A stretch of DNA of 64,000 bases from Legionellales bacterium (GTDB lineage: Bacteria > Pseudomonadota > Gammaproteobacteria > Eutrophobiales > Eutrophobiaceae), in NCBI GenBank assembly GCA_002721165.1, contig PBJS01000024.1:1918-65917 (forward strand). Direction: 5' to 3'. Every line of letters starts with the position of its first letter. Position 1 is the stretch's first letter. Made by a program: the position numbers and the translations under genes. A model generated the notes under the pieces. That model did not search any database and was not told the origin of the DNA. It saw nothing but the letters and a program-made list of their open reading frames with translations. This document shows, in pieces, positions 93 to 13,707 of this stretch.

Positions 93-1958
93 CTATTTAA
101 CGTCAAACTCGACTGTGTATGGATGAATATCAATCATCCATTCATTAATCCGTTTTTCCATATCAAGTGTTGCACCAACAAATTTCATAAAATAAATTGG
201 CTCTGCACGGCTACGCATCCTTACTGATAATTTGTATGTGCCAGGCTTTTTAATTAAATCTCCTGAGACTTTATACTTCGCATCACGATGCGCTAATGGA
301 GGAATAGAACGTCCTTCCATTCTGGCAAATGGAGGGTGGTTCATAACCGTTGTTGGCTGACCGGCTGGCCTTAGCATGGGGAGCTGATCGATATCAAAAT
401 TAACTGGTAGATACATCTCCCGATCAGTTCCTTTAAGATTTGTTGTCAAAAATTTTGTTTGTAAATTAAAGAGCTGATCATCATGTTCGATTGTTCCCTC
501 AGCTAATTCTATTGAATGAAGATCAACCATATCGCCATATTTATCAACATAACCAGATTCAAACACGCGCTCCCCATCAGGATCGGTAAGCACAACGTTT
601 AACCAAATCTCAGGCTGCGCCCCTAATGATCCAGATGGAAGATTATGACCTTCATCAACGTTGGTTACTCGATACCGAAAATTTAAATCTTTACCTATTT
701 CTGGGCCGCCTTTATCAAAAAAAGGTCCATCAATACGACTTCCGTTCTCCATAACAGCAAGACGATCAAGACGTTTATTTTCCAAAAGTTTTTCGTTTTG
801 ACCAATTATGTACCTTGCTTCTTCGCGTACTTTTCGTGCTGACCATATCTCCGGAAATTCTGGGGTCTCAACCAGTTCCTGTTCGAGTTTATCCTCCCAA
901 TCAGGCATCCCCCATGGTTCACGATAATTAAAAGTTAGCCATTCCTTAACAGACCATTTAAGTGCACGAACATTAAATGGAAATAGACCGGGATGTGCAA
1001 TTGGATAACCGGGTCCATAAAAAGCATGGTTCGAATGTTTACGATTAGCATCGCCAACAACACGTCCGTTTACGATTGCCACGGGGCCTGTATCATAACC
1101 TTTTGCCTCACCAGGTATTTTCCCCATATGACAATCTTGGCACGTCACTCCTTTTCTAAAAGCAGGACTATCTCTATACTGTTCCCAAACTACTTCTAGC
1201 TTGATGCCTATGTTAACTGCCACCTGATGGCATGACACACAAAATTCCGATTGCCCAATCGTTTCAAAAACCTTAGCGCCACCATGAATAGGGAAACCCT
1301 CTTCTTCAGGGCTAGTTGATATTTTATAAAAATCACGTTCGGCTATTACTTCGGCAACACCGGGAGCGTCTCCAGTATTATAAACGGGCTCATAAATACT
1401 ACCTGGGTTTACATGTCGCTCACCATTAACCTTAAAGAATGATTGATTAACCCTGTGGCATGTGATGCATGTTATTCCCTCTCTTGCCACTAACGAACGT
1501 TCCCACAGAGGTGATTCTCTGGGTTCGCCAATCTGAGTCCCGACTTGTTGATGACAGCGCACACAAAAACTGCCCATAGTGCCAGATGTTAGTGCATTGA
1601 CTGCCTGTTCAAATTTATGAAACATCGGCGAGATTGACGCATAAGCGTGGTTTGATGATGCCCATTCAGTAAAAATTCGCTGGTGACAACGGCCGCATAA
1701 TGCCGCCGACGGATATTGTGATTGCTTTAATATCTCAAGATGAGGGTCAATACCTCCGCCCCCACCAAGTAATTTTGGTTCAACATCACTAACCAATCTT
1801 TCCCACTGAGCTTCATAATCCTCGGGGAGCTTATGATTTTGATCGATGATTGACTCATCAGCTAAAGAAAATCTAGAAAATACAAAAAGGATCAGTAAAT
1901 AAAGTGTTGTCTTAAAAAACACCACAAAATATCTGTTTTGATGTATCTGTGTTTTCAT
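93..1958 (-). CDS. Secreted multiheme c-type cytochrome (five CXXCH) with a ~300 aa non-heme C-terminal domain
   Basis: N-terminal signal peptide (MKTQ...FSLADE). Heme motifs CGRCH, CVRCH, CITCH, CVSCH, CQDCH. An EWASSNHA motif resembles the NrfA/c554/HAO superfamily. A GHNLPSG motif sits in the C-terminal domain. Confidence 0.8.
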   Translation of the reverse strand: MKTQIHQNRYFVVFFKTTLYLLILFVFSRFSLADESIIDQNHKLPEDYEAQWERLVSDVEPKLLGGGGGIDPHLEILKQSQYPSAALCGRCHQRIFTEWASSNHAYASISPMFHKFEQAVNALTSGTMGSFCVRCHQQVGTQIGEPRESPLWERSLVAREGITCITCHRVNQSFFKVNGERHVNPGSIYEPVYNTGDAPGVAEVIAERDFYKISTSPEEEGFPIHGGAKVFETIGQSEFCVSCHQVAVNIGIKLEVVWEQYRDSPAFRKGVTCQDCHMGKIPGEAKGYDTGPVAIVNGRVVGDANRKHSNHAFYGPGYPIAHPGLFPFNVRALKWSVKEWLTFNYREPWGMPDWEDKLEQELVETPEFPEIWSARKVREEARYIIGQNEKLLENKRLDRLAVMENGSRIDGPFFDKGGPEIGKDLNFRYRVTNVDEGHNLPSGSLGAQPEIWLNVVLTDPDGERVFESGYVDKYGDMVDLHSIELAEGTIEHDDQLFNLQTKFLTTNLKGTDREMYLPVNFDIDQLPMLRPAGQPTTVMNHPPFARMEGRSIPPLAHRDAKYKVSGDLIKKPGTYKLSVRMRSRAEPIYFMKFVGATLDMEKRINEWMIDIHPYTVEFDVK

Positions 1959-2055
1959 AAAAAAATATTATCCAACTATATTACTCTATAAAACATCACT
2001 CACAATTTTGAACGAGGGTTCACTCATCGTGATTATAGTAGACTCGTTATCATCG

Positions 2056-3408
2056 CTATTTCTTTGAGATCTGCATTTCAGTTTCTACGGCAGCCTTTAT
2101 ACTTTCAATTGCTTTAACAAATTCCGAAGGGCGATATTTTTCATCATATTTAACTGCTTCATAAGCCATATCCATTGCAGTTTTTACTTTTTTTATCGTC
2201 GCACCCTTTAACATTCCCGCATCTTTCATCGCCTCAACAACACTACCAATCGAATAAGTAGCCTGCTCTGCAGCTATATAATTTACGTATTCTCCATGAA
2301 GACCAAACTCTATAAGCGCATTAAGCACCTTGCTCATTTCACCACCAGTGAAACTATGTTTGTTGATTTTTTGCACAACTCCTTGAATTGTTTGCTTCAA
2401 TGTCTTAGCCGCATCATAAGTCGCATCACCGCCTTTCATCGAGGACTGATGTAATATCCTTGCATCATCTTCAATGCGTTTCCCTAGCTCAGGATCAACA
2501 ACTGAAGTAACAACTCTTAACAACACAATATTTGCATCATTTAATTTAGGTATGCCAGGATCCAGACCTACGCTATCTCTCCTCTCCCAACGAAGATTAG
2601 ACATTGGGTGATGACAGGCATGGCAGTCAAAAAAGACCAACTCTGGAAAAATACCCTGACGATTACGTTTTTTATCTGTCAATGCATCTAAGGTTTCATT
2701 TACAGCAACAGCTTGACCAATCGCCCAGGTTTTAACACCGTTAGACCAAGTCTTTCGTTGCCTATAATCAGCATCAACACGATAGTGTGCCGGTTGGGTA
2801 GCTGTGTATGTATCAAGCTCAAAAGATAATCGTGGGTGTCCAGCGCCCATAATCTTATGGGTAAGAAATTTATTTTTTGTACCGTAGTGACAACTAAGAC
2901 AAAGCTTTGCTCTGGCTATTGGTTGCTCAGTTGGATATTGGCCTGCTTCTATATTTTCTTTACGTCCACCTACACCTGCAACATGGATACCGAGCCATTG
3001 CTCTGCGCCCCCGTGACAGGCCTCACAAGTTACACCATCATTTAATGTAAAATTTTTGGCACGTTTTGCTTTTGGGACATTATTCGCATGGCAATTAAGA
3101 CATGTATCATCTTTTTGTGGATCTTCGATACCTAAATTCTTCGCAATACGTAAGGCTCGTTCTTTGCCTAATGTTTTATAAGCACGAGCATGATGGTCGT
3201 ATTTTTTCCAAGTAATTGCCTCGTTTTGAAGTACTGATGAGTTCTGCCATGGCTTGACTGCCCCGTGGCAAGTCGAACCTGCGCAAGTCTGCACACCCAA
3301 GTGCATTGCATCTCCATATTGCGGTAGAGTTTCCGCTTTAAGAATTGAAACTTGAATTATTGATGATAATCCAAGTATAAAAAAAACGTATCTGAAGCCT
3401 TTATTCAT
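2056..3408 (-). CDS. Secreted multiheme c-type cytochrome (four CXXCH plus one CX4CH) with a helical C-terminal domain
   Basis: Motifs CLNCH, CEACH, CLSCH, CHACH, plus CAGSTCH. The signal peptide begins at MNKGFRYVFFILGL (Met15 of the track ORF). A GGGG Shine-Dalgarno-like stretch lies upstream of that Met. The track's alternative start is 3450. Confidence 0.75.
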   Translation of the reverse strand: MNKGFRYVFFILGLSSIIQVSILKAETLPQYGDAMHLGVQTCAGSTCHGAVKPWQNSSVLQNEAITWKKYDHHARAYKTLGKERALRIAKNLGIEDPQKDDTCLNCHANNVPKAKRAKNFTLNDGVTCEACHGGAEQWLGIHVAGVGGRKENIEAGQYPTEQPIARAKLCLSCHYGTKNKFLTHKIMGAGHPRLSFELDTYTATQPAHYRVDADYRQRKTWSNGVKTWAIGQAVAVNETLDALTDKKRNRQGIFPELVFFDCHACHHPMSNLRWERRDSVGLDPGIPKLNDANIVLLRVVTSVVDPELGKRIEDDARILHQSSMKGGDATYDAAKTLKQTIQGVVQKINKHSFTGGEMSKVLNALIEFGLHGEYVNYIAAEQATYSIGSVVEAMKDAGMLKGATIKKVKTAMDMAYEAVKYDEKYRPSEFVKAIESIKAAVETEMQISKK

Positions 3409-3480
3409 ATTGTTATTTGCCCCGTGGGTACTTTCATTAATTATACCCAAACTGCTATTGAATTTTTATCATAATAAACC

Positions 3481-3987: not shown

Positions 3988-5205
3988 CTAATCTGTTCCC
4001 AGATCAAATACCATATGTAAAACACGAACTGCGGGTTTTAAATATTTTTCATCTACAACAACAGAAACTTTGATTTCTGACGTTGAAATCATCTGAATAT
4101 TTATTTTTTCATCTGCCAACGCCTTGAATATAGTACTAGCAACTCCTGCATGAGAACGCATACCTACACCAACAACAGAAATTTTTACAATCCTGTTGTC
4201 GCCAGTTACATCTGTAGCATCTATGTCTTTTGCAGTTTCTTTCAAAATTGACATAGCTTTGTCATAGTCATTTCGATGAACTGTAAAAGTAAAATCAGTA
4301 CTATTATTTAAACCAACATTTTGAACAATCATATCCACTTCAATATTTGCTGCGGCAATTGGGTCAAGTATCGTAGATGCAATCCCAGGTTTATCCGGTA
4401 CGCCGACTACGGTCAATTTAGCCTCATCACTATTATGAGCAATTCCAGATATTAAAGCCGCTTCCATAATTTCTCCCTCATTAGTTATTAAAGTTCCCGG
4501 CCCCTCTTCAAAACTAGATAATACACGTAAATTTATATTATATTTCCCGGCAAATTCAACCGCGCGTGTTTGCAAAACTTTCGAGCCGAGGCTCGCCATT
4601 TCGAGCATTTCCTCATATGTTAATGAGGGCAATCTTTGTGCATTCTCAACTATCCTTGGATCTGCGGTATAAACACCATCAACATCTGTATAAATTCTGC
4701 ATTCATCGGCAGCAAGGGCTGTTGCCATAGCAACAGCTGTAGTGTCTGAACCACCTCGTCCTAATGTTGTTATATCTCCATCTTCGTTAACCCCCTGAAA
4801 ACCAGCGATGACAACAACTTTTCCCTGTTGTAATTCCTTTTTGACTCGTTCCACCTCTATATTAGCTATTCTCGCTTTGTTATGAGCGCTATCAGTATGT
4901 ATGCAGACCTGTCCACCAGTAAAAGACAGGGCCTGACAACCTTTCACTTCAAGTGCCATTGTTAACAAAGCGATTGTAACTTGTTCTCCGGTCGACAGAA
5001 GCACATCTAATTCTCTTGGATTCGGTGACTTTGTTATGCTATCAGCAAGAGAGAGTAGACGATTGGTTTCACCACTCATAGCAGAGACAACTACAACAAC
5101 TTGATGACCTTGTTTTTTGGTTTCAATCACCTTCTCAGCAACCAGCTGAATTCGCTCAGCAGTACCAACAGAGGTTCCACCATATTTTTTTACTATTAAT
5201 GCCAT
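3988..5205 (-). CDS. lysC: Aspartate kinase (monofunctional, LysC type)
   Basis: KYGGTSVG motif. 405 aa with ACT domains at the C-terminus. Confidence 0.9.
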   Translation of the reverse strand: MALIVKKYGGTSVGTAERIQLVAEKVIETKKQGHQVVVVVSAMSGETNRLLSLADSITKSPNPRELDVLLSTGEQVTIALLTMALEVKGCQALSFTGGQVCIHTDSAHNKARIANIEVERVKKELQQGKVVVIAGFQGVNEDGDITTLGRGGSDTTAVAMATALAADECRIYTDVDGVYTADPRIVENAQRLPSLTYEEMLEMASLGSKVLQTRAVEFAGKYNINLRVLSSFEEGPGTLITNEGEIMEAALISGIAHNSDEAKLTVVGVPDKPGIASTILDPIAAANIEVDMIVQNVGLNNSTDFTFTVHRNDYDKAMSILKETAKDIDATDVTGDNRIVKISVVGVGMRSHAGVASTIFKALADEKINIQMISTSEIKVSVVVDEKYLKPAVRVLHMVFDLGTD

Positions 5206-5271: not shown

Positions 5272-7878
5272 TTAGTTTTTAAGTTGGCTACGGACCCAAT
5301 CTGGAACTTTTGCTAAAGCACTTTCTAATTTCTTAGGATCATCGCCTCCGGCTTGTGCCATATCAGGACGTCCTCCCCCTCGCCCTCCAACCTGTTCTGC
5401 TACAAAATTTACCAAGTCACCCGCTTTAATGCGATTAGTCGTGTCGTCAGTAACGCCTGCAACTAAGCTCACCTTTGATTCATTAACAGTCGCAAGAATT
5501 AATACAGCTGTCCCAAGTTTATTTTTAAGCTGATCAACGGCATCACGAAGACTTTTCGGATCAGCAGTATCAATTGATTTAGCAACAATACTAATATCAT
5601 CAATTACAGTGGTTTCCTCAAGCAAATTTAAACCCGCATTGCTGGCTAATTTACCTCTAAGTTGTAATAACTCTTTTTCAAGTTTACGAGTTTTTTCAAG
5701 TTGTAAATTGAGTTTAGAGTCAACTGTTTCTACATTAGATTTCAATGATTCTGCCATTCGTTGTAACTTTGCTTCCATATTTTCAATCCAGACAAATGCT
5801 TCAAGGCCAGTAATTGCTTCAATACGCCTTACCCCTGAAGCTATACCTGATTCTGAAATAATTTTAAATACACCTATATCACCGGAACGTTCGACATGTG
5901 TCCCGCCACATAATTCACAAGAAAACTCCCCGCCAATATTTAACACCCTGACAGTATCTTCATATTTCTCACCAAATAATGATATCGCTCCTGATAATTT
6001 CGCTTTTTCGAGGGGCATAACCTGAATCTGAGTTTCATTATTCTCTAAAATTTTAGAATTCACTAGTTGCTCTATTTCCTTCAGTTGCTCATAAGTTAGT
6101 GATTCGTTATGTGAAAAATCAAATCGCAATCGATTGCTTTCAACTAGAGACCCTTTTTGTACAACGTGATCTCCTAGCATCTTTCTTAACGCAGCATGAA
6201 GTAAATGGGTGGCAGAATGATTACGTGCAACATCAGTTCGTATTTTTTGGTCGACTGAAGCACGAACAACATCACCCACTTTAAAAGTCCCTGTGCGTAG
6301 AATACCTAAATGAATATGTGACTGTCCTTGCTTTTTAGTATCTTCAACTTCAAAGAAAACATCGCCAGCAAATAATTCACCCTTATCACCAACTTGCCCC
6401 CCGGATTGCGCATAAAAGGGAGTCTCTAACAAAATTACGCCGCCGACATCACCTTCATTTAATTCTTTTACGTTTCTTCCGTCTTGGTAAAGCCCAATTA
6501 TTGTCGTCTTTTGCTCTAATCTTTCATATCCAGTAAATGCACTCACTAAGTTACTATCAGTATTAATAGAAACATCAATATCAAACTTACTTGCAGCCCG
6601 AGCTCGTTTTCGTTGTCCGGCCATAGCTTTGTTAAAACCCTTCATATCAACTTTCATATTTTTTTCACGGGCAATATCAGCTGTTAAATCTACTGGAAAT
6701 CCATAGGTATCATACAGACGAAAAACATCTTCGCCATGAATAACGTCACCTTTTGTTTTTGTAATAACTTCATCTAAAATTTTTAATCCTTGATCCAAAG
6801 TTTCAGCAAAACGCTCTTCCTCACTAAGCAACATGCTCTCGATATTTGATCTTGTTTTTGATAATTCAGGATAAGCATCGCCCATTTCTTCTTCAAGAAC
6901 CTCAACCAATTGATGAAAAAAAGGTTTTTTGAAGCCTAACTTATTACCATGTCGAATTGCACGGCGAATAATTCGTCGCAACACATAACCCCTACCCTCA
7001 TTAGAAGGAATTACACCGTCTGCCAATAAAAATGAACAAGATCGAATATGGTCAGCAACGACACGGCTAGAAGTTAAATCAATTTTTTTATTGCCACAAA
7101 GAGTTTTTATTTTTTTGATAATCTTTTCGAATGACTCAATTTCAAAATTATTATTAACTCCCTGCATGACGGCGGTAACTCTTTCGAGCCCCATTCCCGT
7201 GTCGACTGAAGGATGTGGGATAGGTGTTAATGAGCCGTCACTACCACGGTTAAATTGTGTAAACACTAAATTCCATATTTCAACATAACGATCTAAATCA
7301 GCGTCTTTAGACCCCGGAGGTCCACCAGGTATATCTTCGCCATGATCATAGAAAATTTCACTACACGGACCACAAGGTCCGGTGTCTCCTGCTGACCAGA
7401 AGTTATCTTTTTCGCCACAACGAGTAAATTGCTTTGATGAAACACCAATTTCTTTTAACCAAATATTAGCTGCCTCTTCATCGTCTTCAAAAACTGTTAT
7501 CCAAAGTTTAGACTCTGGAATTTTTAATACAGCTGTCAAATACTCCCAGGCATAAGTAATAGCATCTTGTTTGAAATAATCCCCGAAACTAAAATTCCCT
7601 AGCATTTCGAAAAACGTGTGGTGTCTTGCTGTGTATCCGACATTTTCTAGATCATTGTGTTTACCGCCGGCACGTACACAACGCTGCGATGATGCAGCTC
7701 GTTTGTATGGACGACTCTCTCTTCCAAGGAACACATCTTTAAACTGGACCATGCCCGCATTTGTAAATAACAGTGTTGGGTCATTTGCAGGGACCAAAGA
7801 ACTGCTTGGGACAATTTCATGATCTTTTGATTTGAAAAAATCCAGAAAGGATTGGCGGATGTCATTACTAGTCTTCAT
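5272..7878 (-). CDS. alaS: Alanine--tRNA ligase
   Basis: 868 aa. HHTFFEMLGNFSFGDYFK class II motif. C-terminal GGGRPDMAQAGG. Confidence 0.95.
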   Translation of the reverse strand: MKTSNDIRQSFLDFFKSKDHEIVPSSSLVPANDPTLLFTNAGMVQFKDVFLGRESRPYKRAASSQRCVRAGGKHNDLENVGYTARHHTFFEMLGNFSFGDYFKQDAITYAWEYLTAVLKIPESKLWITVFEDDEEAANIWLKEIGVSSKQFTRCGEKDNFWSAGDTGPCGPCSEIFYDHGEDIPGGPPGSKDADLDRYVEIWNLVFTQFNRGSDGSLTPIPHPSVDTGMGLERVTAVMQGVNNNFEIESFEKIIKKIKTLCGNKKIDLTSSRVVADHIRSCSFLLADGVIPSNEGRGYVLRRIIRRAIRHGNKLGFKKPFFHQLVEVLEEEMGDAYPELSKTRSNIESMLLSEEERFAETLDQGLKILDEVITKTKGDVIHGEDVFRLYDTYGFPVDLTADIAREKNMKVDMKGFNKAMAGQRKRARAASKFDIDVSINTDSNLVSAFTGYERLEQKTTIIGLYQDGRNVKELNEGDVGGVILLETPFYAQSGGQVGDKGELFAGDVFFEVEDTKKQGQSHIHLGILRTGTFKVGDVVRASVDQKIRTDVARNHSATHLLHAALRKMLGDHVVQKGSLVESNRLRFDFSHNESLTYEQLKEIEQLVNSKILENNETQIQVMPLEKAKLSGAISLFGEKYEDTVRVLNIGGEFSCELCGGTHVERSGDIGVFKIISESGIASGVRRIEAITGLEAFVWIENMEAKLQRMAESLKSNVETVDSKLNLQLEKTRKLEKELLQLRGKLASNAGLNLLEETTVIDDISIVAKSIDTADPKSLRDAVDQLKNKLGTAVLILATVNESKVSLVAGVTDDTTNRIKAGDLVNFVAEQVGGRGGGRPDMAQAGGDDPKKLESALAKVPDWVRSQLKN

Positions 7879-7888
7879 GAATGCCTAA

Positions 7889-8329
7889 TTATGACAAAAG
7901 TTGGCTAATTAGTTGACTGCTAAAACCCCTATTGAGTAAAAATCTTGATTGTTTTGATTTTTCCATACTATCGGAAGGAGGGTTTCCCCCAAACCTCTTA
8001 ACTCTAGCTGTCTCGGCTTGTGATAACCAGTCAACTGAGCATGCCTCGAGGTATTGTCTTATCACAGCTTTTGCTATGCCACGTTGCTGTAATTCCTGCT
8101 GAATTTTCAACGGCCCCTTCCCGCTACCAGCACGGTGATTTACGAAACTCTCTGCAAATCGTTCATCGCTTTGTAAGCCCTCGCTCGAGAGCTTATCCAA
8201 CAGCTCGTCAATTAATGTTTGGTCTTCACATGCCCTGGCAAGTTTGCGTGCTAATTCCTGACGGCTATGTTCTCTTCTTGCCAGAAAGTCACAAGCACGC
8301 TGTAAGACTTGTTGACGCTCTGTACTCAG
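7889..8329 (-). CDS. recX: Recombination regulator RecX
   Basis: The track ORF (7889..8200) starts at TTG. The frame stays open upstream to a TGA at 8360-8362 and encodes ...[17 protein letters not shown], a conserved RecX N-terminal motif. No ATG, GTG or TTG lies in that stretch. A CTG at 8327-8329 overlaps the recA stop (CTGA), so the start coordinate is uncertain. Confidence 0.7.
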
Positions 8330-9390
8330 ACTACTGCCTCCTCCTCTGTTTCTGTCTCTTCAGTTAATTCTTCAACTGGAATGGTCGGTAATAGTTTAGC
8401 CCGAATTTGCTCTTCTATTTCATTTGCAATCTCAGGGTTTTCTTTTAGGAAAACTCTCACATTATCTTTACCTTGGCCGATACGATCATCTTTATAGCTA
8501 TACCAAGCACCCGCCTTATCTACCAATCCTTCCTTGACGCCCAAATCAACTATCTCACCCTCACGAGAAATACCTTCATTATATAAAATACCGAACTCAG
8601 CCTGCTTAAATGGCGGGGCAATCTTGTTCTTGACGACTTTTACTCGTGTTTCGTTCCCTACCACTTCTTCGCCTTTCTTGATTGCGCCAATTCTACGAAT
8701 GTCTAAACGAACTGATGAATAAAATTTTAATGCGTTACCCCCTGTTGTGGTTTCGGGATTACCAAACATGACGCCTATCTTCATGCGAATTTGGTTAATA
8801 AAAATCACACAGCAATTTGCACGTTTTATATTTCCGGTTAATTTTCTTAAAGCTTGAGACATTAAGCGGGCGGCAAGACCCATATGAGAATCACCCATCT
8901 CACCCTCTATTTCTGCCCGAGGAACTAATGCTGCAACAGAATCAATTACAACCAATTCCACAGCACCACTGCGTACTAACATGTCGCAAATTTCAAGTGC
9001 CTGCTCTCCGGTGTCCGGCTGAGAGACCAGTAAGTCATTAATATTCACACCAAGTTTTTCAGCATAAACAGGATCCAGCGCATGTTCTGCATCAATAAAA
9101 GCACAGATCTTTCCCTGTTTTTGCGCTTCAGCAATTGCTGACAAAGTTAATGTCGTTTTACCAGATGATTCCGGTCCGTAAATTTCAACAACTCGACCAT
9201 AGGGTAATCCTCCTGCTCCCAAAGCAATATCAAGACCCAGCGAGCCGGTACTAACAGATGCAATTTTTGTGGCAGGCTGATCTCCCATTTTCATCACCGA
9301 GCCCTTACCAAATTGTTTTTCGATTTGGCTCAGTGCCATCGTTAACGCCTTTTTTTTGTCATCTCCAGTTTCTGTTGTCGCCATGTTCAT
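8326..9390 (-). CDS. recA: Recombinase RecA
   Basis: [12 protein letters not shown] Walker A motif. 354 aa. Strong AGGAGAA Shine-Dalgarno sequence upstream. Confidence 0.97.
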
Positions 9391-9427
9391 TTCTCCTATA
9401 TCGTTAAACTACCTTCATTTTGAATAG

Positions 9428-9456
9428 ACTATAGGGTATACTTTTATAGATGTCAA
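9428..9456 (-). promoter_or_regulatory. Candidate sigma70 promoter for recA (TTGACA, 17-nt spacer, TATAGT)
   Basis: On the minus strand, TTGACA lies at 9456-9451 and TATAGT at 9433-9428 with a 17-nt spacer, about 40 nt upstream of the recA ATG. The spacer contains repeated TATAG half-sites. Confidence 0.4.
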
Positions 9457-9553
9457 TACTTTTTATGACCTTTATATTTTTTACCATATCATAGATTTTA
9501 CTATGTTTTTCCTATTTTTTTGTATAATTCACTGAATTTCATAGGATTTAGTA

Positions 9554-10444
9554 ATGGCAAAACAAAAAGTAACGATGGATGAAATTAAGTGGGGTACACG
9601 GCAACGTCTGCAATATATCGAATTAATGGCGTTTTATGCCGGGGTAATTACGCGAAGTGATATTGCTAAGGCATTCGCTATCTCAGATGCGGCTGCGACT
9701 AAAGATTTAAAATTCTACAGTGAAATCGCACCCGATAATCTGATCTACAAACACAGCGTATTCGGCTTTGTCCCCAGTAGCTCATTTCGTGAGGTCTTCG
9801 CTGATTTATCACCAGCGGTGGCATTATCAATATTTGAAGCAAATTTTATTATCTCAAGCATTCCAAATATTGATAATCATATGTTTGGCATCCCTACTTC
9901 TGGATTAACCTTGCCAAACCGACTACCAAAAAAATCAGTGCTAGCACAAATTACTCGTTCTATATGTAGTAAGAAAAAATTAAAGGTTAGTTACCATTCA
10001 CTAACTGAAAAGGCACAGCCAACGAAAAGAATTATCGAGCCGCATTCGCTCGTCAACACGGGTTTTCGTTGGCATGTCCGCGCCTATAGTGAGGAGAGTT
10101 TTGATTTTCGGGATTTTGTCCTTTCCCGTTTTATAAGTGCAAAATGCCTTGATGATGAAGTCGAATCAAATGAATTATATGATGATGATTGGGTAGAAAT
10201 AATATCACTTGAACTCGCTCCTCATCCGAAACTTATTAAAGAAAAACAGAAAAGTTTACTGCTTGATTACAGTGCTAATAAAAATGTGATCAGCATTAAA
10301 GTAAGACGTGCGCTAATTGGGTACTTACTACAACAACTTTCTGTCGACACCACAATTGATCACTCATTAAATCCAAATAAATATCAACTTATTGTACTTA
10401 ATCGAGATGAAATCGAGCCTTTTGCGAGCTGGGCATTTGATTAG
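9554..10444 (+). CDS. HTH-WYL-WCX family transcriptional regulator (PafBC/DriD/BrxR/CapW-like)
   Basis: The N-terminus is a winged-HTH-like segment (SDIAKAFAISDAAATKDLKFY). The central motif GFRWHVRAYSEESFDFRDFVLSRF matches the WYL domain. A C-terminal extension follows. The gene is divergent from recA. Confidence 0.7.
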   Translation: MAKQKVTMDEIKWGTRQRLQYIELMAFYAGVITRSDIAKAFAISDAAATKDLKFYSEIAPDNLIYKHSVFGFVPSSSFREVFADLSPAVALSIFEANFIISSIPNIDNHMFGIPTSGLTLPNRLPKKSVLAQITRSICSKKKLKVSYHSLTEKAQPTKRIIEPHSLVNTGFRWHVRAYSEESFDFRDFVLSRFISAKCLDDEVESNELYDDDWVEIISLELAPHPKLIKEKQKSLLLDYSANKNVISIKVRRALIGYLLQQLSVDTTIDHSLNPNKYQLIVLNRDEIEPFASWAFD

Positions 10445-10464
10445 TTAACAAGTAGGAGGAAAAA

Positions 10465-10734
10465 ATGAAAGAGTTTTGGTTTACACCTAAAAATTATGGC
10501 AATGGGTTCTACCCTTCTTCTTGGCAAGGATGGTTAATCATCCTAATTGCCCTTGCATTAATTTGTGCAGCTTTTTATCTCAGTAATCCTTTTGAATATA
10601 AAACAACTGAACAAGCCATAAATGATTGGCTACGTTTTATTATCGATTTTATCGTGATTCACACTGTATATTTTGTTCTTGTTAAAGATAGGGTAAAGGG
10701 TGGAGTGAGATGGCGTTGGGGGAAAGAAAATTAA
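10465..10734 (+). CDS. Small hypothetical inner-membrane protein (two predicted TM helices)
   Basis: Strong Shine-Dalgarno AGGAGG 6 nt upstream of the ATG, 20 nt after the WYL gene stop. Hydrophobic segments GWLIILIALALICAAFYL and FIIDFIVIHTVYFVLV. Confidence 0.65.
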   Translation: MKEFWFTPKNYGNGFYPSSWQGWLIILIALALICAAFYLSNPFEYKTTEQAINDWLRFIIDFIVIHTVYFVLVKDRVKGGVRWRWGKEN

Positions 10735-10743
10735 ACAATCTTT

Positions 10744-11241
10744 TTAATCTGAGGTCTTTTGCAGAATATCAAGCAGTCCTTGCATTGCTAAAAGACAAGA
10801 TTGCTCCCTTACTCTTCGACGGTCTCCTTCAAAATGAATGCACGTTGTATTACCACCCTTGTCTCTTTCGCACCATGCAACACAAACTGTCCCAACGGGT
10901 TTTTCTTCACTCCCCCCATCAGGCCCCGCAACTCCTGTAATTGAGACACTAAAATCTGCAGAACTCATATCAAGCGCACCTTTTGCCATAGCAAGCGCTG
11001 TCTCTTCGCTAACGGCACCAAATTCCTCCAGCGTATCAATGGGAACAGCTAAAAGATCCCGTTTTGATTGGTTTGAGTAAGTCACAAACCCGCATTCATA
11101 CCATAACGAACTACCAGGCAGCTGTGTTAAATTCTCTGCTAAGCCACCGCCTGTACATGATTCAGCGGTAACGAGTTTTTTTGAAGCTTTTAAAAATCGT
11201 TCAGCTAACTGTTCAACTAAAACTTGAGTGGCATTCGTCAT
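10744..11241 (-). CDS. pncC: NMN amidohydrolase PncC (CinA C-terminal domain protein, YgaD-like)
   Basis: 165 aa. TAESCTGGGLA and FVTYSN motifs. ITGVAGPDGGSEEKPVGTV aligns closely with E. coli YgaD. Confidence 0.9.
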   Translation of the reverse strand: MTNATQVLVEQLAERFLKASKKLVTAESCTGGGLAENLTQLPGSSLWYECGFVTYSNQSKRDLLAVPIDTLEEFGAVSEETALAMAKGALDMSSADFSVSITGVAGPDGGSEEKPVGTVCVAWCERDKGGNTTCIHFEGDRRRVREQSCLLAMQGLLDILQKTSD

Positions 11242-11714: not shown

Positions 11715-12446
11715 CTACGCAGATAATTTTTCATTTAACTTGATCTGTTCAGAAAAGCGTTTCTTACTTAATTCAATAAATTTTTTATCTATCTCAATGC
11801 CGATGTATTCTCTATTAGTGCGAATACATGAAACACCTGTTGTACCACTACCATTAAAAGCATCTAACACTAAATCACCCTCATTAGTTACGGCTAAAAT
11901 CAATCTATCTAATAAGGCAATGGGCTTTTGTGTTGGATGTTTATCATAAGTTTTTTCAGACTTGCCTGGTGCCGTCATCACCCACACATCTTTCATTTGT
12001 TTGTCATTATTTATTTCTTTCATCAATTCATAATTAAACTTATGTTTTGATTTAAGATTTTTAGCGGCCCAGATAATCGTTTCCGTACTATGTGTGAAAT
12101 AACGACAAGCTAGATTAGGCGGTGGGTTTGGTTTTTGCCAGGTTATATTGTTTAAAATTTTCATATTAAGTTGCTGCATTGCATAACCAATCGAATAAAT
12201 CACATGAAAAGTGCCGGAGACCATTAATGAACCGTTTGGCTTTAAGATTCTTTGGCATCTTTTTAACCATTCGTAATTAAATTGATGATTAACTTCGGCG
12301 CCATTTGATTTATCCCAATCACCCTTATCGACTTTTACCATGCGTCCATTCTGGCAAGTAATACCACCATTAGACAGAAAATATGGAGGATCGCAAAAAA
12401 TCAGATCAACAAACTCACCCCGCTCCTCGTAGAGTTTATCCATCAC
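11715..12446 (-). CDS. Beta-class N6-adenine DNA methyltransferase, CcrM/M.HinfI/YhdJ family, short form
   Basis: Motif IV DPPY lies N-terminal and motif I FNGSGTTG lies C-terminal. Long stretches align with CcrM (WLK..L...G...V.G..H; NITWQKPNPPPN; HPTQKPIALLDRLILAVTNEGDLVLDAFNGSGTTG). It lacks the CcrM C-terminal domain. Confidence 0.85.
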   Translation of the reverse strand: MMDKLYEERGEFVDLIFCDPPYFLSNGGITCQNGRMVKVDKGDWDKSNGAEVNHQFNYEWLKRCQRILKPNGSLMVSGTFHVIYSIGYAMQQLNMKILNNITWQKPNPPPNLACRYFTHSTETIIWAAKNLKSKHKFNYELMKEINNDKQMKDVWVMTAPGKSEKTYDKHPTQKPIALLDRLILAVTNEGDLVLDAFNGSGTTGVSCIRTNREYIGIEIDKKFIELSKKRFSEQIKLNEKLSA

Positions 12447-12494
12447 TTCTAAACAATTTCCTTCTATGAGTTTGATTTTTTTTACCTATTTTTT

Positions 12495-12800
12495 CTATTT
12501 AATATTTAAGCCTTCTTTTTTTAAAAGACTCTTTTTTTGCTTAATTCCACCTTTACCACTATAACCGCCTAGATAGCCATTTGAGCCAACTACTCTGTGA
12601 CATGGAATTTTAATAGGATATGGATTTTTGCCACAAGCATTAGCAACGGCTCTTATAGCTCTAGGTTTTTTTATAATTCTAGCTAGTTCTTTATAAGTTC
12701 TAACTTCACCTTTTGGGATTTTAGATATTGCCTTCCAAACTTTGACTTGAAACGCAGTGCCCTCTAATATCATCTTTGCCTCTATTCTCTTGCGACACAT
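12495..12800 (-). CDS. Minimal methylated-DNA--protein-cysteine methyltransferase (Ogt/MGMT C-terminal domain only)
   Basis: Active-site PCHRVV motif. TYKELA helix-turn-helix. 101 aa. Low GC and AGA-rich arginine codon usage. Confidence 0.8.
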   Translation of the reverse strand: MCRKRIEAKMILEGTAFQVKVWKAISKIPKGEVRTYKELARIIKKPRAIRAVANACGKNPYPIKIPCHRVVGSNGYLGGYSGKGGIKQKKSLLKKEGLNIK

Positions 12801-12855
12801 AAGTGTATTTCAATTATCTTGATACATAAACCAATATAAAATTATAAACTGGAAA

Positions 12856-13707
12856 ATGAATAAAAAAATACATAGAAAACAAGCTAATATTGACTCTAAA
12901 GTGGTAGAGGACTTTGGTAAAGAGTGGGAAGCATTCAATCAGGAGGCTTTTATCGGCGAAAGCTTAGAGAGTGCGTTTAATCAATACTTTTGTATTTTTC
13001 CTATGGAAAAATTAAATACAAACTCTGTAGGCTTCGATATGGGTTGTGGCAGTGGGCGTTGGGCAAAACTGATTGCTCCAAAAGTAAAACAATTAAACTG
13101 TATTGATCCAAGTAATTTAGCACTAGAACAAGCAAAAAAAAATCTGTCCGAATTCCCAAACTGCAAATTTGAATGCGCTTCAGTTTCAGATAATACTCTC
13201 GAAACCAATTCTCAGGATTTTGGATATTGTTTAGGAGTGTTACATCATATTCCAAATACACTTGAAGGTCTTAAATGTTGTGCTGAAAAAATGAAAAAGG
13301 GGGCGCCTTTCCTTTTATATATGTATTACCGTTTTGATAATAAGCCAATATGGTTTAAGTTTATTTGGAAGTTATCTGATATTTTTCGAAGAGTTATAAG
13401 TAAGCTGCCTTTCCCTATAAAATTATTTGTTTGTTTCGTTATTGCTGTATTTATTTATTACCCTCTTTCAAGATTCTCTTTACTTCTTGAGAAACTTAAA
13501 ATTAACGTTTCAAACATACCACTATCTGACCATCGTAATAAAACTTTTTATGTTTTAAAAACTGATGCATTAGATAGATTTGGAACAAGGTTAGAAAAAA
13601 GATTTACAAAAAATGAAATTCGAGAAATGATGGCTAAAGCGGGATTCAAAGATATTTCATTTAGTAACGGTACTCCTTTTTGGGTAGCAATTGGGACAAA
13701 ATCCTAG
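12856..13707 (+). CDS. Class I SAM-dependent methyltransferase with a hydrophobic C-terminal region, substrate unknown
   Basis: Motif I FDMGCGSGRWAKL and post-II GVLHHIP. Hydrophobic stretch LFVCFVIAVFIYYPL. Low GC. Confidence 0.7.
   Translation: MNKKIHRKQANIDSKVVEDFGKEWEAFNQEAFIGESLESAFNQYFCIFPMEKLNTNSVGFDMGCGSGRWAKLIAPKVKQLNCIDPSNLALEQAKKNLSEFPNCKFECASVSDNTLETNSQDFGYCLGVLHHIPNTLEGLKCCAEKMKKGAPFLLYMYYRFDNKPIWFKFIWKLSDIFRRVISKLPFPIKLFVCFVIAVFIYYPLSRFSLLLEKLKINVSNIPLSDHRNKTFYVLKTDALDRFGTRLEKRFTKNEIREMMAKAGFKDISFSNGTPFWVAIGTKS

Follow-up and report, generated by a model that had tools for sequence, protein, structure and literature searches.

BrxR and CapW, the closest characterised relatives of the protein considered here, have been described only as regulators of defence systems. 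Co-localisation with phage defence is typical, not universal, applying to 48-61% of BrxR homologues, and the survey of the BrxR family makes no mention of recA (PMC9122601). In BrxR operators two arms flank a 5-bp A:T-rich centre whose minor groove is narrowed (PMC9122589; PMC9122601), and the structure of CapW with single-stranded DNA (ssDNA) revealed contacts by S144, R164, R168 and R184 (Rl CapW), including an RWHVR motif (PMC11662680). The WYL regulators reported to control recA are activators, namely PafBC and, in Moraxellaceae, DdaA (2025-2026), and the same has been reported of DriD for other damage genes. DdaA has a genome-wide regulon, in which it activates genes of the damage response and of defence, recA and aciT among them (PMC12392091, PMC13010146). 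The present analysis concerns a 64,000-nucleotide stretch of DNA from a Legionellales bacterium (GenBank assembly GCA_002721165.1, contig PBJS01000024.1, positions 1,918 to 65,917), referred to in its full length as the window, in which a 296-residue regulator of the BrxR/CapW type is encoded divergently from recA. No published account of a recA-linked BrxR/CapW-type regulator was found in the literature on WYL, BrxR and CapW proteins with recA, recX, the recA promoter or gene neighbourhood, in agreement with the preliminary description of this DNA, which had called the arrangement undescribed. The pair and the region that separates it are located as follows.

8326-9390, minus strand: recA (Pfam RecA, E = 1.7e-143), the divergent partner and presumed target gene
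9391-9553: the recA-regulator intergenic region, 163 bp
9554-10444, plus strand: gene of the 296-residue winged helix-turn-helix (wHTH)-WYL-WCX regulator (Pfam WYL, E = 1.9e-12), of the recA-linked orthologous group of the BrxR/CapW clade

A BrxR/CapW-clade regulator paired with recA

The HTH-WYL-WCX identity proposed for the 296-residue protein in the preliminary description was borne out by the Pfam match, by structural comparison and by full-length alignment with BrxR and CapW. The profile of its family aligned over the full length with BrxR structure 7T8K (E = 1.2e-45) and also retrieved a second BrxR, 7QFZ (E = 9e-44), and three CapW structures (E ~1e-39), and precomputed annotation places WHD_BrxR, WYL and BrxR_CTD domains on every homologue of the regulator. 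Foldseek comparison of its AlphaFold (AF2) model, with a predicted local distance difference test (pLDDT) score of 75, gave BrxR and CapW as the top 15 matches (E 1e-18 to 1e-23). PafBC was matched by the family profile in the WYL domain only (E = 6e-6), DriD gave no match in this sequence-profile comparison, and the model matched DriD and PafBC with E ~1e-8. By sequence and fold, the regulator is outside the PafBC/DriD/DdaA activator clades. PafBC and DriD, which had been offered as its analogues, thus belong to the wrong clade, since members of the BrxR/CapW type are repressors (PMC11662680).

All four ssDNA-contacting residues of CapW have aligned counterparts in the regulator (S149, R172, R176 and R192), with R172-W-H-V-R176 forming the RWHVR motif, and these residues are invariant across 25 diverse family members. 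On the strength of the profile comparison, the Foldseek matches and these invariant positions, the protein is, as judged from sequence and model, a BrxR/CapW-clade wHTH-WYL-WCX regulator with its ligand pocket intact. Its identity to the BrxR proteins of Acinetobacter sp. NEB394 (7T8K/7T8L) and Escherichia fergusonii (7QFZ) is ~31-35% over the full length; architecture and fold are the same, the basic WYL pocket is conserved, and in both cases the gene adjoins the promoter presumably controlled by its product. CBASS-associated CapW (7TB5, 7TB6, 9C5G) belongs to the same clade and is similarly encoded divergently from the operon that it controls via a bidirectional promoter.

A protein search returned >1,400 homologues of the regulator, the best 120 of which are all at least 64% identical, and when one genome was scanned for each GTDB species, 506 species proved to have a relative. 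The set of loci compared here consists of the best 80 loci together with three long contigs, and upstream sequence is available for 79. In 78 of these 79 species-level loci recA lies divergently adjacent to the regulator, the lineage labels being Legionellales, Thiotrichaceae, Ectothiorhodospiraceae, Chromatiales, Thiobacillaceae, Hydrogenophilales and Burkholderiales; each of the three long contigs shows the same divergence. The complete genome of the cultured Thiobacillus sedimenti (CP141769.1, locus L091) carries recX-recA, the divergent regulator gene and CinA in this order, and the divergent layout, usually with pncC beyond, is spread through a large gamma- and betaproteobacterial group. 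The gene 3' of the regulator varies, with LigT in 40, pncC in 27, a small open reading frame in 8 and other genes in 45 of 120 non-redundant loci. Where the preliminary description had seen a two-gene module inserted between pncC and recA, only the second gene, encoding an 89-residue membrane protein, is lineage-specific; the regulator is no insertion but part of a widespread pairing with recA.

Identities of RecA and of the WYL regulator correlate across loci (Spearman rho = 0.72). The median identity of the regulator is 64%, compared with 67% for alaS, 58% for pncC and 51% for recX, so that its rate of evolution is about as low as that of alaS. Among 1.8 billion cluster representatives searched, its tight clade amounts to only ~5 clusters at 50% identity, within 361 BrxR/CapW-like clusters that make up a broad plateau. 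An origin from a mobile element was considered and rejected, because plasmid relatives of the regulator are at most 35% identical. The recA-regulator pair is an old, slowly evolving, chromosomally fixed and vertically inherited orthologous group, in contrast to BrxR, which is mobile and diverse and is accompanied by BREX or defence-island cargo instead of recA.

These comparative data already contradict a further reading raised in the preliminary description, according to which a decayed BrxR/CapW-type defence regulator has been stranded without its defence operon. The closest characterised relatives do control BREX, CBASS and restriction systems (PMC9122601), and PADLOC WYL models match the protein. 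However, the open reading frame is intact and strongly conserved, its predicted ligand pocket is invariant, and it occupies the same chromosomal place beside recA across gamma- and betaproteobacteria while evolving as slowly as alaS. Its neighbours across loci (recA, recX, alaS, LigT, pncC, tadA and guaA) are housekeeping genes, and no defence operon was consistently present in the neighbourhoods of the examined loci, which sets the regulator apart from the BrxR/CapW family at large. A stranded regulator is accordingly hardly credible: the family had been named correctly, but the supposedly missing cargo had not, as the conserved cargo is recA, which would be the controlled gene in place of a phage-defence operon.

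The control block between the two genes

The 79 recA-regulator intergenic regions, comprising 77 distinct sequences, were aligned on the invariant TGTCAATA. The alignment revealed a conserved block with two promoters in and beside it and four candidate sites, whose positions in the window are given below.

9420-9501, no strand assigned: conserved non-coding control block of ~82 bp, common to recA and the WYL gene
9428-9433, minus strand: recA promoter -10 hexamer TATAGT (promoter scan, 11/12 matches; TAnnnT in 79/79 loci)
9438-9448, no strand assigned: site R1, ATACTTTTATA, within the recA -35/-10 spacer, centre ~-22, with conserved ATAC.TTT; putatively protein-binding
9451-9456, minus strand: recA promoter -35 hexamer TTGACA (promoter scan; TTGACA in 77/79 loci)
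9456-9466, no strand assigned: site R2, ATACTTTTTAT, abutting the recA -35, centre ~-40; the best conserved site, CAATAyTTTTTAy.ACCT
9474-9484, no strand assigned: site R3, ATATTTTTTAC, centre ~-58 from the recA start
9491-9501, no strand assigned: site R4, ATAGATTTTAC, ~-75 from the recA start and in the -35 region of the promoter that serves the WYL gene itself
9523-9528, plus strand: probable -10 of the WYL gene promoter, TATAAT (TATAAT or TATACT at variable distance after R4 in all loci)

Among the 77 unique sequences, identity reaches at least 90% in 31 of the 82 block columns and at least 80% in 45; the 30-nucleotide flank beside the block has no column at 90%. This conservation holds across gamma- and betaproteobacteria despite an intergenic G+C content that spans 20 to 51% across loci. 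The block is single-copy per locus, and additional copies of it or of R2-R3, sought as a sign of a wider regulon, were found nowhere else in the 64-kb window or the fetched loci. An RNA element was also considered for the intergenic region and dismissed, as Rfam gave no significant match and the block lies upstream of both predicted transcription starts.

The recA promoter is of the sigma-70 type, TTGACA-17-TAnnnT, with its spacer fixed at 17 bp. Since it combines a consensus -35 (77/79 loci) with a good -10 at this distance, it needs no activator, whereas a promoter dependent on a WYL activator would be expected to have a weak or absent -35. This bears on the chief competing possibility, that the regulator is an ssDNA-dependent activator like DdaA, DriD or PafBC, which would bind at ~-40 (class II) in each of the divergent promoters and bring in RNA polymerase once damage has occurred. 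All WYL regulators of recA or of the DNA-damage response from other phyla act as activators (PMC12392091; PMC13010146), the site centres at ~-40 for recA (R2) and ~-39 for the WYL promoter (R4) suit such a role, and the WYL promoter of the window has a poor -35. Nevertheless, an activator is unlikely in view of the recA promoter, of the position of R1 inside the spacer, where a bound protein normally blocks polymerase, and of the placement of the regulator by sequence and fold within the BrxR/CapW repressor clade, far from the activators. Moreover, the WYL-activator motifs (CGWCA-N5-TGWCG of DdaA; CGAC-N7-GTCG; the RecA-NDp TGTCRGTG-N8-TAnnnT) had 0 matches in the 79 intergenic regions, and the DdaA, DriD and PafBC motifs are thus absent from all of them.

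DdaA resembles the present regulator in being a WYL regulator, one that takes charge of recA in gammaproteobacteria without LexA and is a proposed ssDNA sensor (PMC12392091, PMC13010146). It differs in belonging to a separate WYL clade next to DriD, in its larger size (38.7 kDa), in acting as an activator through its own motif, and in that recA adjacency has not been described for it. DriD of Caulobacter and PafBC of Actinobacteria are likewise ssDNA-sensing WYL regulators of LexA-independent damage responses, and PafBC controls recA; they are only remotely related to the present regulator, however, and are activators with other motifs and a global rather than local reach.

R1-R4 are four related 11-bp A/T-tract pseudo-palindromes of the form RTA-N5-TAY (consensus RTA-yTTTT-TAY), spaced by 18, 18 and 17 bp, and in 8 relatives R3 forms a perfect palindrome, TAGTA-N5-TACTA. 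In form, short arms around a 5-bp A:T centre, they resemble BrxR operators, but BrxR uses one 25-27 bp palindrome, as opposed to four short candidate sites in a periodic array. CapW similarly occupies a single 19-24 bp palindrome, placed over the -10 of a defence operon; here the target would be a core repair gene, with candidate sites over the spacer, the -35 and further upstream. Thiobacillus-type loci have A-tracts (ATAAAAAATAT) where R2 and R3 otherwise have T-tracts, both sites being flipped together. These flipped-operator loci are L055, L061, L070, L071, L078, L081 and L091, in which a new TCACGTGA-like palindrome was also observed.

The same sequences have to be weighed as a possible property of the recA promoter alone. 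As a second rival reading, the regulator might be a bystander that controls only itself or has distant targets and adjoins recA merely by inheritance, in which case the block would consist of the recA promoter plus an UP element, and/or would serve as operator for another protein, such as an unrecognised LexA variant. Judged against the well-known UP-element consensus, the A-tracts directly upstream of the consensus -35 resemble UP-element subsites, and a dyad scan of the block found only weak axes (0.52-0.53 versus a background of 0.30 +/- 0.08) and no clean BrxR/CapW-style palindrome of 20-27 bp, nor one of 19-27 bp. On the other hand, the conserved non-A/T positions (ACCT, TAC, GGC) and the conserved spacer positions exceed what a promoter plus UP element needs, and the joint flip of R2 and R3, which inverts and so keeps the pseudo-palindrome while destroying the UP-like A-run on the recA strand, argues against a simple UP element. 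The recA side of the regulator is also constant and its other side variable, and the block is never found beside recA without the WYL gene, as described below. A bystander therefore appears quite improbable.

As for LexA, whose motifs vary widely among Proteobacteria (PMC4951493), the five known boxes CTGT-N8-ACAG, GAAC-N4-GTTC, TGTTC-N4-GAACA, GTTC-N7-GTTC and TTAG-N6-TACTA gave 0 matches each in the 79 recA upstream regions. In some lineages R3 reads TTAGTATTTTTTACTA and was considered as the Xanthomonadales LexA box TTAG-N6-TACTA; a literal match was rejected because the spacing is N7 rather than N6, the palindrome being TAGTA-N5-TACTA. No lexA gene was found in the 64-kb window or any fetched locus, the rest of the genomes not having been scanned.

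Metagenome contigs were scanned with a 22-nucleotide pattern that spans the recA -35 and R2, which returned 120 stretches. Ninety-six of them have recA and the WYL gene on opposite sides, that is, 96 of the 96 in which the block is present and both flanks are readable; the others are contigs cut short, or 22-mers that stand alone with the remainder of the block lacking. Among the ~100 readable contigs there was no case of the full block and recA without the WYL gene. Together with the 78 of 79 loci and the deeply conserved shared control region, these 96 contigs substantiate the link between recA and the regulator that the preliminary description had drawn from one locus. About 10 of the metagenome matches are isolated, a number within chance expectation. 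Exact 22-nucleotide R2/-35 matches without block, recA or WYL gene were seen in L093, L152, L183 (one identical sequence in three samples), L115/L210 and L178. Isolated matches of this kind probably arose by chance, given the great size of the database; lone operator sites that belong to other promoters are also possible.

The sole locus with a regulator gene unlinked from recA, L037 (OZ253445.1, a complete 2.1-Mb chromosome), is informative in this context. Its regulator retains its own -10 and a decayed R4 upstream, but R1-R3 are lost, from which the block can be seen as a property of the recA-regulator junction and not merely of WYL expression. At 5500-6003 of this locus the regulator follows pilT/pilU-like genes and a TauE-like membrane protein, with a run of 13 G upstream.

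Some features of the intergenic regions lie beside the block. In most relatives (L001-L003 and L009-L032) the recA 5' leader opens with a hairpin of 7-9 bp, just past the predicted start (e.g. GCUGUUC-GGGG-GAAUGGC), the pairing of which is kept between lineages through compensatory changes; it is absent from 9391-9420 of the window and from L004-L007, the leader of the window's clade being short (31 nucleotides). Intergenic regions of 270-480 bp occur in L033, L021, L053, L064, L065, L069 and L078, and several lineages carry repeat or palindromic insertions, as in L033 with three tandem copies of ~27 nucleotides, CACTGAC(G/T)TTCGGGA(T/A)G(A/T)CAAACCGGG. Such insertions in the spacer always fall outside the conserved block, which is intact.

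How the regulator may act on recA

It is probable that the regulator acts on recA through this block, to which it would bind. The more specific proposal, that it is an ssDNA-released repressor of recA and of itself, is given a probability of roughly 0.45, the sign of regulation and the ssDNA trigger being suggested by the relatives of the protein. Such a repressor, modelled on CapW (PMC11662680), is favoured on account of the clade, the invariant ssDNA pocket, a promoter that is independent of activators, the presence of sites in the spacer and at the -35, and the CapW-type divergent layout.

Briefly, a dimer or higher oligomer of the regulator would bind the R1-R4 array at ~-22, -40, -58 and -75 from the recA start, which overlaps the intrinsically strong sigma-70 promoter of recA as well as the -35 region of the regulator's own promoter, so that both promoters would be held down in undamaged cells. 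When ssDNA accumulates through damage, stalled forks or possibly DNA uptake, it would bind the conserved WYL pocket, and the ssDNA-bound regulator would leave the DNA. Expression of recA, probably as recA-recX, and of the regulator gene would then rise together, along with that of the 89-residue protein in the window's lineage. Induction of recA in this way would require neither LexA nor the co-protease activity of RecA. On this proposal the regulator would resemble LexA and the SOS response, in that a repressor occupies a strong recA promoter as well as its own and is removed when ssDNA appears. It would differ in being an unrelated protein at loci that have none of the five LexA boxes upstream of recA, and neither self-cleavage nor a RecA filament would be needed, because ssDNA would be read directly.

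Several points weigh against such a repressor. Every functional step is inferred from homology and conservation. The recognition helix reads SDAAATKD in the regulator versus SRQQASAD in BrxR, and because of this difference (SDAAAT versus SRQQAS) operator predictions from BrxR are not transferable. Besides the missing long palindrome, 25-bp sites of the BrxR type could not be placed 18 bp apart without overlap, and centres at ~-40, -58 and -75 would also suit class I/II activation. An UP element could be formed by the A-tracts that precede the recA -35, and another protein, for instance an uncharacterised LexA variant, could bind the block. Finally, the flipped-operator loci all carry A46P, and most carry T33S, in the recognition-helix region, but co-variation of recognition helix and operator was rejected, as A46P is also found in other beta lineages with unflipped operators; the match between A46P and operator is phylogenetically confounded and was not used as evidence.

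A yet broader statement, that this BrxR/CapW-type WYL repressor is a dedicated LexA- and RecA-independent recA switch with a four-site operator in a large group of gamma- and betaproteobacteria (>500 GTDB species, including a cultured Thiobacillus), is offered tentatively and with slightly greater caution than the repressor proposal itself. In this version the coating of ssDNA by RecA would close a negative feedback loop.

Neighbouring genes and wider meaning

The remaining genes around the pair in the window are the following.

3988-5205: aspartokinase, between alaS and csrA
7889-8200, minus strand: recX, short form of 103 residues (Pfam RecX_HTH2 and RecX_HTH3)
10465-10734, plus strand: small two-helix membrane protein of 89 residues (open reading frame)
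10744-11241, minus strand: pncC/CinA (Pfam CinA, E = 3.7e-55), the convergent flank and a frequent, not constant, neighbour beyond the regulator

The positions of the open reading frames, the 163-bp extent of the recA-regulator region and the AGGAGG within the 20-nucleotide gap between the regulator gene and the small open reading frame are as the preliminary description had given them. With this gap and no terminator predicted between the two, the 89-residue gene is probably co-transcribed with the regulator. Its product has two hydrophobic helices (~residues 20-40 and 56-74) and only 17 database homologues; with 39 invariant residues it is a genuine conserved protein. Confidence in its AF2 model is low to moderate (pLDDT 62), and comparison with Pfam, NCBIfam and PADLOC gave only sub-threshold noise and no family.

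Probable co-transcription behind a strong ribosome-binding site, and the existence of small membrane-anchored division inhibitors under WYL control (DidA, AciT), would be compatible with a checkpoint pair, in which the 89-residue protein is a damage-induced division inhibitor like DidA, SidA or AciT. Such a pair, put forward in the preliminary description by analogy with DriD-DidA, is nonetheless improbable. The gene stands 3' of the WYL gene in 8 of the 120 non-redundant loci, all of the window's own clade, being found after the regulator only in L004-L008 and 9 metagenome contigs. Homologues with 56-62% identity (L084-L090, e.g. L084 6001-6273) occur at an unrelated pilus locus with no recA or WYL gene near, and the protein lacks any family assignment. 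In L084-L090 the homologue lies ~190 nucleotides upstream of a same-strand type IV/competence-type pilus cluster, which comprises a ComP_DUS-type minor pilin, a PilB-like ATPase, a prepilin peptidase and PilY1, with a large MORN-repeat protein on its other side. This context hints at DNA uptake rather than cell division. The 89-residue protein is best regarded as a lineage-specific passenger added to the recA-regulator pair.

Gene order in the window is tRNA-Ser, csrA, aspartokinase, alaS, recX and recA, then the divergent regulator and small open reading frame, then pncC and tadA. The E. coli-type block noted in the preliminary description is thus present, although alaS and csrA are not contiguous, owing to the aspartokinase gene. 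The order recA-recX-alaS is kept in relatives, and recX, 3' of recA across a gap of 125 nucleotides in the window, probably shares its transcription unit. Only the second and third three-helix repeats of RecX were matched in the window protein, the first seemingly being missing, likewise in the closest relatives. Between tadA and guaA, which follow each other directly in L001, the window has three extra genes (11715-13707): an N6/N4 DNA methylase that has no evident nuclease partner (11715-12446), a 101-residue protein that consists of the C-terminal O6-methylguanine methyltransferase domain only, with a PCHRV active site (12495-12800), and an S-adenosylmethionine methyltransferase (12856-13707). 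At 93-3450, adjoining tRNA-Ser, two large multi-haem c-type cytochromes (621 and 464 residues; Cytochrome_C554, NapC/NirT-like) are encoded, consistent with a respiratory or chemolithotrophic lifestyle of an A+T-rich marine gammaproteobacterium.

The induction of recA without a LexA box is understood for few groups only, by PafBC in actinobacteria and by DdaA in Moraxellaceae. The locus described here provides a testable candidate for recA control in a wide range of lineages of ecological importance, among them marine gammaproteobacteria, sulfur oxidisers (Thiobacillus), Ectothiorhodospiraceae and Thiotrichaceae-labelled genomes. Its promoter and candidate operator are defined, mutations of the ligand pocket can be predicted, and one host has been cultured. 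If the proposal is true, recA control would have a third design in addition to LexA cleavage and activation by WYL proteins, and the BrxR/CapW clade, known from mobile phage-defence islands, would gain a role at a core repair gene that is inherited vertically. The 'defence' WYL repressors would then have a housekeeping branch, or may possibly have arisen from one, which would bear on the evolutionary relation between damage sensing and the regulation of immunity.

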